Shown here piece after piece: positions 21,579-47,550 of a stretch of 47,560 bases of DNA (position 1 is its first letter; each line of letters begins with the position of its first letter). The DNA is taken from IMG/VR virus record IMGVR_UViG_2630968533_000001; one strand, given 5' to 3'. A program made the position numbers and the translations under genes. The notes below the pieces were generated by a model. That model was not told the DNA's origin. It searched no databases and worked only from the letters and a program-made list of their open reading frames with translations. Source of the DNA: a virus (taxonomy: Duplodnaviria > Heunggongvirae > Uroviricota > Caudoviricetes).

Positions 21579-22169
21579 ATGGCTCTAAAAATCGAATATT
21601 TACCAGTCGGTAAGTTGCTCAGATATGCCAAAAATTCACGGACTCATTCAGATGAGCAAGTTGAACAGTTGGTGAACAGTATCCGTGAGTTCGGTTTCAC
21701 TAATCCTGTGCTGATCGATGAAAAGAATGAACTGATTGCGGGGCATGGGCGGCTTGCAGCAGCCGAAATTCTGGAAATGGATAAAGTTCCGGCGATTCGG
21801 TTGAGTAACCTTTCTGAAAAACAGAAGAAGGCTTACAGGATTGCAGATAACAAGCTGGCCTTAAATGCTGGCTGGGATATGCAGCTTCTGGCCGAAGAAG
21901 TCAAAGAGTTAATGGATGATGATTTTGATATTGATCTGCTTGGGTTTAATGATGCAGAGCTTGACGAAATGTTAAGCGATGAACAGCCGCAGGAAGAAGA
22001 CGATAATTCTTCCCCTGTTGTTCAAATTAAGTACCTGGCTATTGATAAAGAACGTATTCCCGCGACGGATATGGAAATTGCATTGTTGCTGGATGTTTAT
22101 CGTCAGTACCACGACGCGCATGAAACGCATGAGGGATTTGTTCAGTATCTTGCTAATGGTTGCAAGTAA
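21579..22169 (+). CDS. ParB/Srx-like N-terminal domain protein
   Basis: ORF track; paralogous to 18290-18913 (shared LIAGHGRLAAA and QKKAYRIADN motifs). Confidence 0.7.
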   Translation: MALKIEYLPVGKLLRYAKNSRTHSDEQVEQLVNSIREFGFTNPVLIDEKNELIAGHGRLAAAEILEMDKVPAIRLSNLSEKQKKAYRIADNKLALNAGWDMQLLAEEVKELMDDDFDIDLLGFNDAELDEMLSDEQPQEEDDNSSPVVQIKYLAIDKERIPATDMEIALLLDVYRQYHDAHETHEGFVQYLANGCK

Positions 22170-37956: not shown

Positions 37957-38273
37957 ATAATACGTTTACCATATCATCACCTTCTTACTCGATTGATTGG
38001 TCGCCCAAAACAGTTGTAGAAGAAGTTTTGCAAAATGTCTCTACTATTATTAATACTCAAATTGGCACTGTACCATATGCCAGAAAATTAGGAATTAATT
38101 CAAGTCTTGTTGATAGCCCTAGTCCAATTTTTATTGCTACAGCAACACGAGAAATAATTCAAAAAATTAGTGAGTTTGAGCCTAGAGCGATTATCCATTC
38201 TGTTACTTTTGAAAGAACGGACGTTTCTGATGGTTTTATTAGGCCAAAACTTGTGATAGGAGTTAGAGAATGA
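37953..38273 (+). CDS. Baseplate wedge protein (gpW/gp25-like)
   Basis: ORF track; 106 aa immediately upstream of the J-like gene. Confidence 0.6.
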   Translation: MNNTFTISSPSYSIDWSPKTVVEEVLQNVSTIINTQIGTVPYARKLGINSSLVDSPSPIFIATATREIIQKISEFEPRAIIHSVTFERTDVSDGFIRPKLVIGVRE

Positions 38274-39394
38274 CGTTGCCGCGTGGTGGTTTGCCAGATA
38301 TTACTTTCGCAGATTCTAACCCGACTGATATAACAACTCGTTCAATCAGGGCTTTTGAGAGTATAACAGGTGAAACATTAGCACCTGCTGATCCACGTAG
38401 ATTATTCATCTTATCATTGTGTGAGATTATTATACAGCAAAGAAAAGCTATCGATTTTTCTGCAAAACAAAACCTTCTTACATATGGTGAAGGTGAATAT
38501 CTCGACCATATAGGCTATCTGACGGATACGCCTAGGCTGGAAGCTCAATCTGCCTTGACTACATTTGAGTTTAATCTGTCAACAAAATTATCGGGGATAT
38601 ATACAATACCTGCTGGCACTCAAGTTTCAACTGGAAATGGTGTTATTTTCCAAACAGATATGTTGTTGGAAATACCTGCTGGGAAAACAGTTGGTACAGT
38701 CTCAGGATATGCTGTTATACCTGGTTTATCTGGGAATGGCTTTTTACCAGGGCAAATAAATGAGTTGGTGACTCCGTTGCCGTATGTTTCCAGAGTAAGG
38801 AATGTAACAACATCTAATTCTGGTGCTGATACGGAGTCAGATGATAATTATGCTGAAAGAATAAAACTGTCGCCGGAAAAACTGTCTACAGCAGGGCCGG
38901 AGGATTCTTATAAATATTGGACAAGAACAGCCAATCAGAATATAAAAGATGTGAATGTATATACACCATCGCCCGGAATTGTAGAAATCCGTTCTTTGTT
39001 AGAGAACGGAGATATACCTTCTGATGAACTATTAGAGCAGATAAATAGCGTTCTCTCTGCAACTAATATTCGACCATTCACAGATAAAGTTCTTGTTAAG
39101 AAACCAGAGAGCATTGAATACGATATAATAATTAAATACTGGATTAACTCATCGGACAAAAACAGAACAACTTTAATTCAAAGTGAGGTTGAGAAAGCTA
39201 TTGATGAGTATAAACAATGGCAACGTTCGGTTATGGGAAGAGATATAAATCCAGATGAAATTATTCAACGTTTAAAAAATGCTGGGGCTAAAAGATTAGA
39301 AATATCAAGTCCTGTTTTTAATGTGGTTGGAGAGACACAGGTCGCCAGAGAGAGAAATATAAATTGCCAGTATGCGGGGTTAGAGGATGGCTGA
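38270..39394 (+). CDS. Baseplate J-like protein
   Basis: ORF track; segment AGPEDSYKYWTRTANQNIKDVNV parallels the P2 gpJ core as recalled. Confidence 0.7.
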   Translation: MTLPRGGLPDITFADSNPTDITTRSIRAFESITGETLAPADPRRLFILSLCEIIIQQRKAIDFSAKQNLLTYGEGEYLDHIGYLTDTPRLEAQSALTTFEFNLSTKLSGIYTIPAGTQVSTGNGVIFQTDMLLEIPAGKTVGTVSGYAVIPGLSGNGFLPGQINELVTPLPYVSRVRNVTTSNSGADTESDDNYAERIKLSPEKLSTAGPEDSYKYWTRTANQNIKDVNVYTPSPGIVEIRSLLENGDIPSDELLEQINSVLSATNIRPFTDKVLVKKPESIEYDIIIKYWINSSDKNRTTLIQSEVEKAIDEYKQWQRSVMGRDINPDEIIQRLKNAGAKRLEISSPVFNVVGETQVARERNINCQYAGLEDG

Positions 39395-39968
39395 TATCTT
39401 TAATGTTAGCTTGTTGGATGTTTTACCTCCTAACTTAGCTAGCGATCCCAACGTGATAGCTATGTCGAAAGCTATTGATGATGAACTACAAGCAATTAAC
39501 AATTTAATATATAAGACAGAAATATATAGCGTTGTTGATAACCTGGACTCAGTTGTTCTCGATCATTTAGCTTGGCAATGGAATGCTGATACATGGAGGG
39601 ATAGTTGGCCTGTATCGTTAAAGCGTTCTGTTTTTAAATCAATAATACGAACAAAGCGAATAAAGGGTACAAGGGCAGCGGTTGAAGATGTAGTAAATAG
39701 CTTGGGTGGAGAGGTAAACATAACAGAATGGTTTGAAACATCACCACCTGGCGAACCATATACAGCCTCAATTGTTGCTTCGATTAACTCTTTTGATGGT
39801 GCTGTTCCTTCGAAAGAGATGTTGGAGGATACGTTAAGAAGTATCAAGAGTGCAAAGTCGGCAAGAACACTATTTACATTTTCGCAAGCAACCAATGTTT
39901 CAGGTGGTGTTGGTATTGTCGGTGCTTTCCAGCCTGTGTCTTATGTACGATTAATTGGTGAGTGCTAA
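39387..39968 (+). CDS. Tail protein I-like (P2 gpI family)
   Basis: ORF track; LDHLAWQWNADTWRDSWP ... NITEWFETSPPGEPY closely parallels P2 gpI motifs as recalled. Confidence 0.7.
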   Translation: MADIFNVSLLDVLPPNLASDPNVIAMSKAIDDELQAINNLIYKTEIYSVVDNLDSVVLDHLAWQWNADTWRDSWPVSLKRSVFKSIIRTKRIKGTRAAVEDVVNSLGGEVNITEWFETSPPGEPYTASIVASINSFDGAVPSKEMLEDTLRSIKSAKSARTLFTFSQATNVSGGVGIVGAFQPVSYVRLIGEC

Positions 39969-39998: not shown

Positions 39999-42845
39999 GT
40001 GAGTAAATTATTATTTACGATGACTGACGCCGGGCGTAAGGCGCTGGTTAATGCCAACAAGACTGGAACAAATAAAGTTGAGATCGTTTCTGTTGGTTTA
40101 GGTAGTAGATATTATGCCACATCAACCACACAAACAAAAATAACAGATGAAATAAAGCGACTTACCACAATAGGAGGCAAAGTCGTTTCTCCTGATACCA
40201 TTCATGTAACTGCGAAGGATGATAGTAAAGATGAGTATGTTGTCCATACAATAGGTTTGTATACAAATAAAGGAACATTGTTTGCTGTATACTCGCAAGA
40301 ACAAGTAATAATAAATAAAGCATCTTCTACAATTGCTTTAATATCAAGTGATATAGCAATTAAAAATCTTGATACTAAAAACATTACATTTGGTGATGTT
40401 GAGTTTATTAACCCTCCCGCAACCGAAACTGTTGTTGGAGTAGCAAGATTTGCTAATGAACAAGAAATTGATGCAGGTACAGATGATTCCCTGGCTGTTT
40501 CAGCAAAGCGGCTTAAGCAAGCTATTGTAAAACATGAGCAATCACGTAATCATCCTGATGCAACTTTAACATCAAAAGGCATTGTTCAACTCAGTAATGC
40601 CACCAATAGCACGTCTGAAAAGCTCGCAGCGACGCCTAAGGCTGTTAAGGCTGCATATGACCTGGCTAACGCTAAATACACCGCACAGGACGCTACCACG
40701 GCGCGAAAAGGGATTGTTCAGCTCAGTAGTGCCACTAACAGTACGTCTGAAACGCAGGCGGCAACGCCAAAAGCGGTCAAGGCAGCAAATGACAACGCAA
40801 ATTCACGTCTGGCGAAAAATCAGAACGGTGCAGATATCCAGGATAAATCAGCTTTTCTGGACAATGTTGGCGTTACCAGCCTGACGTTTATGAAAAACAA
40901 TGGCGAAATGCCGCTTGATGCTGATCTGAATACGTTTGGTCCTGTTAAGGCTTATTCAGGTATCTGGTCTAAAGCAACATCCACCAACGCAACACTGGAG
41001 AAAAATTTCCCGGAAGATAATGCTGTCGGTGTGCTTGAGGTTTTTGCTGCCGGCAATTTTGCAGGTACGCAACGCTTTACCACGAGAGACGGCAATGTAT
41101 ACATGCGTAAACTCGCCAATAAGTGGAATGGCACTGATGGTCCGTGGGGCGTATGGCGTCACACTCAATCTGCTACCCGCCCTTTGAGTACGACTATAGA
41201 CCTGAATACGCTTGGAGCCGCCGAGCATCTTGGTTTATGGCGTAACAGTAGCTCAGCTATAGCTTCATATGAACGCAATTATCCAGAGGAAGGCGGCTTT
41301 GCTCAGGGGATGCTTGAGATCCTCGAAGGCGGAAATTATGGAAGAACGCAACGTTATACCACTCGCCGTGGAAATATGTATGTCCGCTGTCTTGCGGCAA
41401 GCTGGGATGCATCAAATCCGCAGTGGGAACCGTGGTTAAGAGTCGGTCATCAGTCAGAGAGTCGTTATTACGACGGTGATTTGAATGATGTAACCTCACC
41501 AGGTATTTACAGCGTTACAGGTAAAGCGACCAACGGTCCAATACTGGACGGAAACGGCGTGACAGTCCTCGGTATTCTGGAGGTGTTGAGGCGCTTTGAT
41601 GGTGTTAATGTATGGCAGCGTTATACAACTGCCGGAACAGGTACAACCCTTAAAGGCCGCACCTTTGAGCGCGTCTTTACCGGCAGCTCATGGAGCGAAT
41701 GGCGGGAAGTCTACACCTCGTATTCACTTCCCCTGAATCTGGGTATCGGCGGTGCTGTGGCAAAGCTCACCAGCCTGGACTGGCAGACCTACGATTTTGT
41801 GCCGGGCAGTCTGATAACCGTTCGGCTTGATAACATGACCAATATTCCCGACGGTATGGACTGGGGCGTCATTGATGGCAACCTGATAAACATCTCAGTC
41901 GGTCCGAGTGATGATTCTGGTTCGGGACGCTCAATGCATGTATGGCGCAGCACTGTAAGTAAAGCCAACTACCGCTTTTTTATGGTTCGCATTTCAGGAA
42001 ATCCGGGAAGCCGCACGATCACGACAAGACGTGTGCCAATTATCGACGAAGCTCAGACATGGATGGCGAAACAGACATTCAGCGGTGGTCTTTCAGGCGA
42101 ACTATCCGGCAATGCTGCTACAGCAACAAAGCTGAAAACGGCAAGGACAATTAACGGCGTAAAATTTGACGGCTCGGCAAATATTGAAGCGTTTCCGCCA
42201 GGTGTTCCGCTGCCGTGGCCATCAGATACGCCACCTGCAGGTTATGCAATCATGCTGGGGCAGACGTTTGATAAGGCAGCATATCCGAAACTGGCTATTG
42301 CCTATCCTTCTGGTGTTATTCCAGATATGCGCGGCTGGACAATCAAGGGCAAACCCGCCAGTGGTCGGGCCGTATTGTCTCAGGAACAGGATGGCATTAA
42401 ATCGCACACCCACAGTGCCAGCGCATCCAATACGGATTTGGGTACGAAAACCACATCGTCGTTTGATTACGGTACTAAATCAACGAATAACACAGGTGCA
42501 CATACCCATAATGTATCTGGTACTGCAAATAGTGCTGGCGCACATACTCATACCGTTCCATTAAGGAGACCAAACAGTGGCGGTATGAATTTCGACTGGC
42601 TGGATGGTTCATCAAGTGGCACGGTGGTGGGGAATGGAACTGTGCCTTCTTCTGGCGCACATACCCACTCAGTATCAGGTACCGCTACAAGTGCTGGGGC
42701 ACATGCACACACTGTTGGTATTGGCGCTCATACGCACTCTGTTGCGATTGGTTCACATGGACACACCATCACCGTTAACGCTGCTGGTAACGCGGAAAAC
42801 ACCGTTAAAAACATCGCATTTAATTATATTGTGAGGCTTGCATAA
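39999..42845 (+). CDS. Tail fibre protein (948 aa; GTG start)
   Basis: ORF track; duplicated collar motif [21 protein letters not shown]; His-rich C-terminal GAHTH repeats; followed by Tfa. Confidence 0.85.
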
Positions 42846-43462
42846 TGGCATTCAGAATGAGTGAACAATCACGTACCGTAAAAATTTATAACCTGCTGGC
42901 CGGAACTAATGAGTTTATTGGTGAAGGTGACGCATATATTCCACCTCATACAGGGCTGCCAGCTAATTCTACAGATATCGCCCCACCGGAAATTCCTGCT
43001 GGCTTTGTGGCAGTTTTTAACAGTGAAAATGAATCGTGGAATATTGTTGAAGACCATCGTGGTAAAACGGTCTATGACGTGGCGTCGGGGGACGCATTGT
43101 TTATTTCTGAACTCGGACCGCTACCAGAGAATGTCACCTGGTTGTCGCCAGCAGGGGAGTATCAGAAGTGGGACGGCGTATCCTGGGTGAATGATGAGGA
43201 AGCAGAAAAACTGTTTCGGATACGGGAAGCGGAAGAGAAAAAGGCAAGGTTGATCCAGGAAGCAACAGATAACATCGCAATTCTGCAGGATGCAGTTAAT
43301 CTTGAAATAGCAACAAACGAGGAAAATTCACAACTGGATTCCTGGAGAAAATACAGAGTATTAGTGAGTAGAATTGACACCAGTACAGCTCCGGATATCG
43401 TATGGCCAGAGCTGATGAATCAGGGTTATGTTCGGGAGGACGAGCAGATAACTTCAGACTGA
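42845..43462 (+). CDS. Tail fibre assembly protein (Tfa)
   Basis: ORF track; 205 aa immediately after the fibre gene. Confidence 0.75.
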
Positions 43463-43989
43463 AATTTAGTGATGAATGTTGAATCATCAGGAATATCATG
43501 CAATACCAATGCATGAGCACCTATTGTGACATTGTTTCCTATACGCACTTTGCCACCAAGAATGGTGGCATTACAACCAATGGTCACATTATGCCCTATA
43601 ACAATATCCATATCATTAAATTCCCCGCGAAGTCCAATAGTTACTCCGGGCTTAATTGAACAATTTTCACCGATTGTTACTTTGTGACCGATAACAACAC
43701 TGTTGAGATAAGAAATATCAAAGCCTTTCCCTATATTTACAGTTAAAGGGACTGTTACATTATATTTATCAAGAATGAAACGTTCTATTTTTCCCGCAAT
43801 CTTCCGACAGTATCCGCCTTTATCAAAAAGGTATTTGGCTATGCGCCACCAAAATAAATAACGAACCCTTCTATGTTTTATTGCGCGAACAATTGCCTTT
43901 CGCCAGGAGAAAGGACGCTCGCTACCGATTACTTCATAGTGAATACAGTCTTTAAGTTCATTAATATTCATATCTTTATTATTCAGCAT
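43426..43989 (-). CDS. Hexapeptide-repeat (left-handed beta-helix) acetyltransferase, CysE/WcaB-like
   Basis: ORF track; repeated [LIV]-G-x-x-x-x-I-G hexapeptides ([49 protein letters not shown]); convergent, 3' end overlaps Tfa by about 37 nt; AT-rich. Confidence 0.75.
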
Positions 43990-44469
43990 AAGATAATCAT
44001 GTGACCAATTATTGTAATAATTTTAATGGTATGTTTCTACTGGCTATCCAGCGTGTCTGATACCCAGTAACAAATCGTTAACACAGGTGCAATCAAATGG
44101 TGAGTGTTAAGACTGGCCACTTATTACCAGGTATGAGGGTATGAGTGGCCAGCATTAAATCAGAACAGCCCTTTAACTGAACTGGCCGCGCTGTTAAGGG
44201 ATGATGTCACCTTATCTTTGAAGCCGGACAGCATATTGCTGAACGATGAGTTTACCGCAGGTTTCTGGCTGGGAATCATTGACTGGAGTTAGGCCAGTAG
44301 TATGATGCTCGCAAAACGAGATCCAATTTAGATCCTTTTACTGGTGGATTATCGTTCGATCAGTGAGAGACTTCGTGCATGACCGAAAGTGTTGTGGTAG
44401 AGTTCTCTTAAAACCACGTAACGTGGTTATGATTGTGGGTGTCTGGTTGGAAAGTGACCAGATATGGAA

Positions 44470-44590
44470 ACAAAAAGCCCGCAGATAAATCTGCGGGCTT
44501 CTTGCGACATCCACGGAAAACCAACAATTAACCATGGGCGCCTCGACAACTCCCATTATACGTTGGTTTTCCGTGGACGCAAGAGCGAAC
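44470..44590 (-). ncRNA. CopA-like antisense RNA region (copy-control hairpins in the repA leader)
   Basis: On the minus strand: long stem-loop (44510-44577, arms TCCACGGAAAACCAAC / GTTGGTTTTCCGTGGA) followed by hairpin GCCCGCAG-ATTTA-CTGCGGGC and U-run (44471-44499), the architecture of IncFII CopA antisense RNAs. Confidence 0.45.
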
Positions 44591-44592
44591 AT

Positions 44593-45441
44593 ATGGATAG
44601 ACCAATGCCGTCTCTACGTTCAGCTTACGTTTGTAATTTGTCGCCGGAGTTCCAGCCTCCAAAGCACCATACGCACAAGCTGCCGCTGGTGTTATCTGAT
44701 GCTTTACAGCGCATTAATGGGCGTGATCTTACGTGTGAGGTTGCGTTCTACGTTAATCAACCGTCAGAGCGGAAGCGCCGGATAAACGAGCATCGTCGTC
44801 GGGCGATTAATGCTGTGATCGCTGCGATTTTGCACCATGTAAACATCATTTCTAAGCGGGTTCTGGCCAGTGCTGAGGCGTTGGCTGATTTTTGCGGCCT
44901 GTCTACCGTATCCGAAGCTGGGAACAAGTCTATAACACGCTGTACAAGGGCGTTGTCGCAACTGAAAGCGTTAGGTTTTATTGATTATGAACGTCGCTGG
45001 GATCGGGTGAATAAACAGTATTGGCCAGCGAAAATAGAGATTCGTGATCAACTGCTGGAAACCGTTGGTATTACTGAACAAGCATGGAGACGTGCGGTTA
45101 GCCAGAAACTTAATTACTTCAATGCGAAGAATAGCGAACGGCTTAAAAAAGCGATAACGGAGGCTGATTATAAGCGTATTGTTATTCAGGAGCAGATGGA
45201 GAATGTATGGCGTCAGAGGAAGACGGCCAGAGAGATAAAGGCAAAACAGAAAGCAGCGGAGAGAGCTGCGCGTCTTGTTCGGGAAAAGGGAGAGGCCGAA
45301 CTTCGTCATCAAATCACTAGAGAGGTTAGCCAGGAATTTGCTGATGGCATGTATCCTGGAGCTGACCTTGCATATTTACGATCCCTCGTTGAGCAGCGTT
45401 ATAACAGGTTAAGAAAGACCTGGAAATCACTCCAACATTAA
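44593..45441 (+). CDS. repA: Replication initiator RepA (IncFII RepA1-like)
   Basis: ORF track ORF 44464-45441; core CGLSTVSEAGNKSITRCTRALSQLKALGFIDYE recalled as close to R100/R1 RepA1; start placed at ATG 44593 to match the ~285-aa length of RepA1. Confidence 0.75.
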   Translation: MDRPMPSLRSAYVCNLSPEFQPPKHHTHKLPLVLSDALQRINGRDLTCEVAFYVNQPSERKRRINEHRRRAINAVIAAILHHVNIISKRVLASAEALADFCGLSTVSEAGNKSITRCTRALSQLKALGFIDYERRWDRVNKQYWPAKIEIRDQLLETVGITEQAWRRAVSQKLNYFNAKNSERLKKAITEADYKRIVIQEQMENVWRQRKTAREIKAKQKAAERAARLVREKGEAELRHQITREVSQEFADGMYPGADLAYLRSLVEQRYNRLRKTWKSLQH

Positions 45442-46897: not shown

Positions 46898-47251
46898 TTG
46901 AGCATGTGGACGGTACTTTTTAGCCAGCGATTTGACGACTGGCTAAATGAGCAAGAAGACGCTCTTCAGGAAAAGGTTTTGGCTGATTTGAAAAAGCTAC
47001 AGGTTTACGGACCTGAGTTACCCAGGCCATATGCCGATACCGTAAAAGGTTCTCGGTACAAAAATATGAAAGAGCTTCGCGTTCAGTTTTCTGGCCGTCC
47101 GATAAGAGCCTTTTATGCGTTCGATCCGATTCGCCGGGCCATCGTTCTTTGTGCAGGAGACAAAAGTAACGATAAGCGGTTTTATGAAAAACTGGTGCGT
47201 ATAGCTGAGGATGAGTTTGCAGCACATCTGAACACACTGGAGAGCAAGTAA
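46898..47251 (+). CDS. RelE/ParE-superfamily toxin (HigB-like gene order)
   Basis: ORF track; KELRVQFSGRPIRAFYAFDPIRRAIVLCAGDKSNDKRFYE matches the addiction-module killer signature as recalled; toxin gene precedes the antitoxin. Confidence 0.7.
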   Translation: MSMWTVLFSQRFDDWLNEQEDALQEKVLADLKKLQVYGPELPRPYADTVKGSRYKNMKELRVQFSGRPIRAFYAFDPIRRAIVLCAGDKSNDKRFYEKLVRIAEDEFAAHLNTLESK

Positions 47252-47550
47252 TGAGAACATTAGATGAGGCGATTGCCAGCCGTTCACCTGAAAGCCAGGC
47301 GCGAATTAAAGAAATGGCAGATGAGATGATTCTTGAGGTCGGCTTGCAGATGATGCGTGAAGAACTCCAGTTATCACAAAAACAGGTTGCTGAGGCGATG
47401 GGTATAAGCCAGCCAGCAGTAACAAAGCTGGAGCAGCGCGGAAATGATTTAAAGCTGGCGACATTAAAGCGTTACGTTGAAGCTATGGGAGGCAAATTAA
47501 GCCTGGATGTTGAGCTTCCCACAGGAAAACGAATAGCGTTTAACATCTGA
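47251..47550 (+). CDS. HTH (XRE-type) antitoxin, HigA-like
   Basis: ORF track; start overlaps toxin stop (TAATG); HTH LSQKQVAEAMGISQPAVTKLEQRGNDLKLATL. Confidence 0.7.
   Translation: MRTLDEAIASRSPESQARIKEMADEMILEVGLQMMREELQLSQKQVAEAMGISQPAVTKLEQRGNDLKLATLKRYVEAMGGKLSLDVELPTGKRIAFNI

Follow-up and report, generated by a model that had tools for sequence, protein, structure and literature searches.

How is the tail fibre of an Escherichia coli phage-plasmid assembled from its modules, and from where were those modules acquired? The window (the whole stretch of DNA analysed, 47,560 nucleotides) is a ~47.5-kb myovirus-type phage-plasmid of E. coli with an IncFII-like RepA at 44464–45441 (NCBIfam E=1e-68), and its fibre gene raises both questions. 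The reading developed here, to which we assign a probability of about 0.85, is that the gene product is the long tail fibre, a trimer, of a myovirus that has a P2-like tail and persists as a ~47.5-kb E. coli plasmid, that the fibre consists of an N-terminal dock, repeats, knobs and a gp37/Stf tip, and that its distal part came from a P2-like prophage.

The fibre gene starts with a GTG codon preceded by an AAGGA ribosome-binding site 9 nt 5′ of it, and its 948 codons run without interruption. Position 40560, from which a preliminary description of this DNA had the fibre begin, is therefore internal to the gene, which opens at the position given in Table 1. RefSeq places WP_001523079.1 (‘phage tail protein’) at the same coordinates on an identical plasmid. 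The gene order J–I–fibre–Tfa matches that of P2, and the virion gene set upstream of the fibre is complete. Among PHROG families the protein matches phrog_295 (tail fiber, E=2e-221), and its N-terminus has strong matches to tail-fibre N-terminal families (e.g., phrog_381, E=1e-86). Phage_tail_fib (PF12571) reached 16.6 bits at the N-terminus in the Pfam search, under the cut-off of 23, and the NCBIfam search returned no family for the fibre and none for Tfa. Residues 1–236 have 93.6% amino-acid identity to fibres of Yersinia phages vB_YpM_39/41/44; beyond these, the N-terminus has at most ~45% identity, to Burkholderia and Stenotrophomonas P2-like fibres. In the DNA, identity to backbone relatives is 97% as far as 40793. 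By analogy, this lineage-specific N-terminal module would anchor the fibre to a P2-type baseplate. Domain searches along the fibre matched Phage_fiber_2, Collar and a T4 gp37-type tip, and the protein comprises three modules, each with different relatives, which agrees with the modular fibre that had been proposed.

Table 1. Features of the fibre locus (positions are those of the window; aa, fibre residues)
Feature	Position	Strand	Basis
Baseplate_J gene, upstream of fibre	38270-39394		Pfam
Tail_P2_I gene, upstream of fibre	39387-39968		Pfam
Tail fibre gene, 948 aa	39999-42845	+	ORF list, sequence, PHROG match
Putative N-terminal baseplate-attachment module, aa 1-198, native to phage-plasmid lineage	39999-40592	+	Homology to backbone relatives
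Phage_fiber_2 repeat, copy 1	40574-40661	+	Pfam, translation, DNA repeat search
Phage_fiber_2 repeat, copy 2; left crossover zone, common to backbone and P2-like donor	40706-40793	+	Homology end points
Three pyocin-knob-like beta domains (K1, aa 300-395; K2, aa 396-487; K3, aa 488-575)	40896-41723	+	Repeat alignment, AlphaFold, Foldseek
Distal shaft segment, aa 576-715	41724-42143	+	pLDDT <50 (AlphaFold)
Conserved linker motif ...ATKLKTAR(T/K)IN..., aa 703-726, running slightly beyond shaft segment	42105-42176	+	Homology break inside
Collar domain (PF07484), aa 735-782	42201-42344	+	Pfam E=2.3e-9, 37.5 bits vs cut-off 24; aligned to 2XGF
Needle region with seven HxH pairs, aa 803-922	42405-42764	+	Motif scan and alignment
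Hypervariable head (tip) loop, aa 853-887, predicted receptor-contact region	42555-42659	+	Identity drop vs needle flanks
Tail fibre assembly protein, lambda Tfa type, 205 aa	42845-43462	+	Caudo_TAP E=1e-39; phrog_105 E=1e-93
Hexapeptide-repeat acetyltransferase, convergent	43426-43989	-	Pfam Hexapep
Donor tail-gene remnant, last 29 codons and stop of 163-aa tail protein gene; right end of imported block	44160-44250	-	Translation match
hin/gin-type invertase remnant, last 32 nt including stop	44251-44282	+	Backbone homology

The first of the module boundaries coincides with a repeat. Translation confirms the two tandem copies of a 21-residue motif that the preliminary description reported, at aa 199–219 (nt 40593–40655) and aa 243–263 (nt 40725–40787), and both belong to Phage_fiber_2 (PF03406), which matches in two stretches far beyond chance (E=3.3e-41, 139 bits vs cut-off 22). 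Its label of ‘collar motif’ is a misnomer, since the Pfam Collar domain sits much further along the fibre (Table 1). The repeat unit is 44 aa long and is present twice in the fibre; in the DNA it forms an 88-nt direct repeat with 81% identity and a period of 132 nt. Tandem Repeats Finder detected no array within the fibre gene; the two copies were found by a direct-repeat search and by Pfam. Alignment with related fibres places the breakpoints at these repeats. Three of the four phage-plasmid relatives compared (Yersinia phage vB_YpM_44, the E. coli ATCC 25922 plasmid and an E. albertii plasmid) are 96–98% identical to the window from 37000 to 40792/40793, where backbone homology ends; in the fourth, a further backbone variant, identity stops at 40669. 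In the spread of PLSDB matches, end points cluster at 40782–40793 or 40636–40649, where repeat 2 and repeat 1, respectively, end on their 3′ side, and in unrelated P1-like plasmid fibres the repeat island is the only common sequence. The suggestion that such repeats are recombination hot spots is thus borne out, and the alignments locate the left crossover inside the conserved Phage_fiber_2 repeat. In the ATCC 25922 plasmid the 132-nt unit is present in 3.5 copies that are 94% identical, which shows that copy number has changed by unequal exchange.

Between the repeats and the tip lies a region that the preliminary description had overlooked, with ~90-aa internal repeats (K1–K3) at aa 300–575. 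Homology between K1 and K2 is clear (z=28.8), and K3 is more distant from K1 (z=4.7). An AlphaFold monomer model built with 16 homologues has a mean pLDDT of 61, with values of ~70–90 across the knobs. When this medium-confidence monomer model was searched with Foldseek, the R1/R2 pyocin fibres 6CL5/6CL6 were the best matches (E 1.7e-6 and 3.5e-6, probability 1.0) with a global TM-score of just 0.23–0.25; such low global scores are expected for a beads-on-a-string layout. The model depicts aa 300–575 as three putative pyocin-knob-like domains. NCBI names the 99%-identical relatives ‘pyocin knob domain-containing protein’; Pfam and NCBIfam searches found no knob match in the fibre, and nothing in the PDB matched the middle module by sequence, so that the pyocin fibres emerged from the fold search only. 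The distal shaft segment follows the knobs, and homology to a Peduovirus fibre stops at 42154, within the ATKLKTAR linker motif.

Residues 716–948 match the T4 gp37 tip structure 2XGF (chain residues 16–242) over the whole collar–needle–head construct (phmmer E=8.2e-82), so that the C-terminal end takes its place among receptor-binding tips. The repeated GAHTH(S/T)V motifs that had been noticed near the C-terminus are present and are part of a larger set of seven HxH pairs: H803/805, 835/837, 849/851, 888/890, 902/904, 911/913 and 920/922. Their partners in T4 gp37 are, in order, H883/885, 915/917, 929/931, 966/968, 980/982, 989/991 and 998/1000. Five of the seven motifs have the form GAH[TA]H[STN]V. 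Histidine makes up 10% of aa 791–930 compared with 2.3% of the whole protein, and all 14 histidines of the pairs are invariant in an alignment of five sequences that includes T4 gp37, lambda Stf and a lambdoid Stf. The T4 needle contains seven coordinated iron atoms, and H929/H931 are iron-binding (PMC6957217). The earlier proposal of metal-binding histidine repeats in the fibre tip gains support from the retention of every HxH pair relative to this solved structure, and we infer by homology that the HxH needle binds metal.

The head loop is far less conserved. It shares 11% of its residues with T4 and 20% with lambda or PhiR68_2, compared with 72–95% in the flanking needle, and DNA homology to lambdoid stf is broken at 42511–42659. 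The needle scaffold has thus been conserved, unlike the loop predicted to contact the receptor. The head residues of T4 that contact its receptors (T4 I933–Y949; LPS/OmpC) are not conserved in the window head, which shares the architecture of the T4 head but is 11% identical there, and because the head loop is unrelated (11–20% identity), the OmpC/LPS specificity of T4 cannot be assumed for the window fibre. No isolated phage with the same head loop occurs in the phage collection searched, bar the prophage prediction vB_EcoM-613R2, and the paper that mentions vB_EcoM-613R2 does not discuss its fibre. Homology to T4 also suggests a host-range function for the fibre tip.

The gene downstream of the tip shares 1 nt of its start with the fibre stop codon and encodes a Tfa that is 78% identical to lambda Tfa, relative to which it has a 14-residue C-terminal extension. 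The convergent acetyltransferase gene and tfa have 37 nt in common at their 3′ ends. The acetyltransferase has weak EpsC/CysE/WcaB-like matches in NCBIfam, all under their cut-offs, and its gene lies inside the donor block described below, having moved together with the fibre cassette.

Both ends of that block can be located. Between 40706 and 44250 the window aligns over 3548 nt, at 95% identity, with a P2-like prophage that lies in the E. coli FDAARGOS_1303 chromosome and has the same arrangement of fibre tip, tfa and transferase; identity rises to 98–100% from 41756 on. Two patches depart from the best donor found: the 60-nt linker patch 40794–40852 differs from it, and a patch in knob 3, 41456–41755, is 73–79% identical to it and does match another Peduovirus fibre. 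GC content changes from 0.38 to ~0.50 near 41000, across the left junction. The block ends on the right in a gene remnant that translates as SSFSNMLSGFKDKVTSSLNSAASSVKGLF followed by a stop, with 28 of 29 residues matching the C-terminus of the donor prophage protein, and RefSeq annotates a pseudogene there. In the Yersinia phage and one further relative, backbone homology restarts at precisely 44251, a position that falls within the 3′ end of a recombinase gene, and in all four relatives backbone identity is back at 98–99% from 44251 or 44275 on. This right junction (44250/44251) is sharp, with no common flanking sequence, and it is read as illegitimate for that reason. The block of about 40794–44250, comprising distal fibre, tfa, acetyltransferase and donor stub, was most probably imported from a P2-like prophage. 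The footprints that flank the right junction on both sides would indicate the direction of transfer, which is read from these two gene stubs only.

At this locus, sister elements have Tfa together with an inverted Tfa′ and a hin-type invertase, and the Yersinia phage, whose record is fully annotated, adds an alternative fibre C-terminus gene. The ORF list of the window contains no invertase gene, no inverted tfa′ and no alternative fibre C-terminus, only the 32-nt invertase stub. A reading of the window locus itself as an invertible switch was rejected, given that both the invertase gene and the inverted partner genes are missing from it. The imported block instead appears to have replaced an invertase-controlled dual-specificity cassette, by which a switchable specificity would have become a fixed one. 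Kinship of this family of phage-plasmids with pSLy3 was also considered and was rejected, because pSLy3 belongs to the SSU5 supergroup, a different family. The literature search returned no paper on vB_YpM_44.

In the favoured reading, the lambda-type Tfa would act as the folding and trimerisation chaperone of the fibre. Each of the three chains would contribute its seven HxH pairs to the coordination of seven metal ions (iron in T4) that lie on the trimer axis and staple the needle, and the head loop, 35 residues that separate the third HxH pair from the fourth, would contact the surface receptor. Specificity could instead lie mainly outside the head loop, with the knobs serving as lectin-like side binders or with a tip-bound Tfa as the adhesin, and the needle as a scaffold. 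T2/S16-type gp38 stays at the tip as an adhesin in this manner, and the same has been reported for Mu-type TFAs. Knob 3 looks like a swapped sub-module, its low identity set against 98–100% elsewhere in the donor match, which suggests diversifying exchange; tfa always moves along with the tip, and the C-terminal extension of Tfa relative to lambda Tfa is of a kind with this proposal. Lambda Tfa, however, is a chaperone that is able to substitute for T4 gp38, and the close identity of the window protein to it speaks against an adhesin. The head is also by far the most divergent part of the tip, which is the signature of the specificity determinant. In T4, moreover, receptor binding maps by alanine scanning to head residues between HxH pairs, where substitutions abolish plaques and residues are essential for LPS/OmpC binding (PMC6957217). 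Placing specificity mainly outside the head loop is, on balance, quite improbable.

It could also be argued that the phage-like plasmid is cryptic and defective, its fibre a relic that no longer functions and the junctions scars of decay. The gene stubs at 44160–44282 and the loss of the invertase switch would fit, and vB_EcoM-613R2 was predicted as a prophage in a clinical isolate rather than isolated as a virion. Against this, the 948-codon ORF, its ribosome-binding site and Tfa are all intact, the upstream virion genes are all present, every structurally critical histidine is kept, and conservation is at least 99% in 23 independent complete E. coli genomes. The close family members vB_YpM_39/41/44 were deposited as phages with Y. 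pestis EV76-CN as host. We regard a relic as hardly credible: given the intact ORF, the conservation of at least 99% on plasmids and the family members deposited as phages, the fibre of this phage-plasmid is likely functional.

The joint movement of three genes invites a further, rather unlikely idea, that tip, Tfa and acetyltransferase make up a mobile cassette complete in itself, a ‘key plus lock-changer’, in which the enzyme would O-acetylate the surface polysaccharide or LPS receptor of the same tip and the lysogen would exclude phages with that tip. If true, this would account for the movement of the three genes together among P2-like prophages, P1-like plasmids and the phage-plasmid, and for the acquisition of a cassette that ousted an invertase switch.

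The fibre and tfa together occur, with at least 80% of the query covered, in 24 of 5426 complete E. coli genomes, 23 of them at ≥99% identity, and the carriers among the matches listed are ~47–57-kb plasmid records. The junction between knobs and tip is found in 88 of the 5426, where the additional records listed, at 96–98% identity, are chromosomal prophages; the pair of tfa and acetyltransferase is found in 208. Four E. coli plasmid records of ~47.6–57.5 kb, NZ_CP032259 and NZ_CP103471 among them, contain the fibre region at 100% identity, and over a wider stretch of 10.6 kb these two agree with the window at 99.7% identity. In PLSDB, 358 records have a match to the wider region. The element is already known in that identical plasmids are in RefSeq and the gene is annotated in public records. 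Textbooks already cover mosaic fibres, iron needles with HxH pairs and chaperones of the Tfa kind, and both the module types and the use of conserved fibre motifs as recombination linkers are long established. The locus changes no concept; it offers a clean, coordinate-level case of fibre module exchange, in which a conserved 44-aa repeat would serve as the homologous crossover point and a 3.5-kb putative host-range cassette of distal fibre, chaperone and acetyltransferase would have been transferred between P2-like prophage and phage-plasmid. It could be used to annotate the common ~47–50-kb E. coli phage-plasmids, many of which come from clinical isolates, and could serve as a model for the design of retargeted fibres.

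Four known systems share parts of this architecture. The tip resembles those of T4 gp37 (2XGF) and lambda Stf in its order of collar, needle and head and in keeping all seven HxH pairs; over aa 716–948, identity (tblastn) is 62% to T4 gp37 and 57% to lambda Stf, the 15-residue C-terminal end is identical, and in all three a chaperone gene lies immediately downstream. The chaperone is of lambda Tfa type in the window and gp38 in T4, and the carriers of the tip differ: a 948-aa P2-type baseplate fibre in the window, a four-protein long fibre in T4 and a side fibre in lambda. R-type pyocin fibres (6CL5, 6CL6), the best structural matches, have tandem knob domains in the shaft, as the window fibre probably does; they have only ~20% sequence identity to the window fibre, and their tip is a lectin-like foot rather than a His/iron needle. 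Among P2-like (Peduoviridae) gpH fibres that carry pyocin-knob domains are NC_070906 gp22 and WP_000104715.1 of the E. coli FDAARGOS_1303 prophage. Over aa ~237–719 the window fibre is 93% identical to Peduovirus fibres at the DNA level; NC_070906 gp22 has a different C-terminal tip beyond the ATKLKTAR linker, and the FDAARGOS_1303 prophage is 95% identical through the whole distal block, tfa and acetyltransferase; the N-terminal 236 aa and baseplate genes of the window come, unlike these fibres, from the phage-plasmid lineage. Mu S (PDB 5YVQ, 8JU3) has Phage_fiber_2 and a DNANxRLAKxxNGADI segment in common with the window fibre, and the sister phage-plasmids, with fibre–Tfa–Tfa′ and an invertase, are like the invertible S/U–S′/U′ cassette of Mu and the S/U cassette of P1 (Gin/Cin/Hin). 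The window differs from these cassettes in having neither invertase nor Tfa′ nor alternative C-terminus, and would consequently express a single fixed specificity.

The window (1-47560) looks like an entire circular phage-plasmid. Its virion genes form a full myovirus set, and alongside them are genes for an IncFII-like RepA and for a toxin-antitoxin pair (see table). Plasmids of ~47-50 kb from many clinical E. coli isolates have 99-100% identity to the window over the parts compared, and the ATCC 25922 plasmid is a member of the same phage-plasmid family.

Backbone, cassette and junction features of the window
Feature	Position	Strand	Remarks
ParB-like	21579-22169		
Hexapeptide-repeat acetyltransferase	43426-43989	-	weak EpsC/CysE/WcaB-like matches; phrog_2154 'unknown function'
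P2-like tail protein gene, 3' end	44160-44250	-	
hin/gin-type invertase gene, last 32 nt	44251-44282	+	
IncFII-like RepA	44464-45441		
RelE/ParE-type toxin	46898-47251		one half of toxin-antitoxin pair
HTH antitoxin	47251-47550		one half of toxin-antitoxin pair

Within the imported block, two patches, 40794-40852 and the third pyocin-knob-like domain of the fibre (knob 3, 41456-41755), have just ~72-79% identity to the P2-like donor prophage, compared with 98-100% elsewhere, and knob 3 matches a different Peduovirus fibre (NC_070906). These patches are second-level mosaicism within the block. Repeats also occur within the fibre. The 132-nt Phage_fiber_2 unit is present in two copies in the window (81% identity), whereas the ATCC 25922 plasmid (L008, 3585-4050) has 3.5 tandem copies with 94% identity, so copy number varies across the family. 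A 63-nt direct repeat (42495-42557 and 42654-42716; 76% identical) flanks the head loop, the predicted receptor contact, and codes for GAHTHxVSGTAxSAGAHxHTV on both sides; in the needle, the HxH-pair region of the tip, the ascending and the descending half look like an ancient internal duplication.

The acetyltransferase gene and tfa, which codes for the fibre assembly protein, are convergent and share 37 nt. Of 5426 complete E. coli genomes, 208 contain this pair, in one case on a P1-like plasmid, and the acetyltransferase may be a fibre-linked moron for receptor modification or superinfection exclusion. At this position an E. albertii sister plasmid carries an LPS GlcNAc-transferase and a different acetyltransferase. 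Two back-to-back gene stubs (44160-44282; see table) mark where the imported cassette ends on the right; in sister plasmids the invertase gene is intact and the fibre segment is invertible. At its C-terminus Tfa is extended by 14 residues ([15 protein letters not shown]; 43421-43462) that lambda Tfa and lambdoid Tfa lack; they are encoded where tfa and the acetyltransferase gene overlap.
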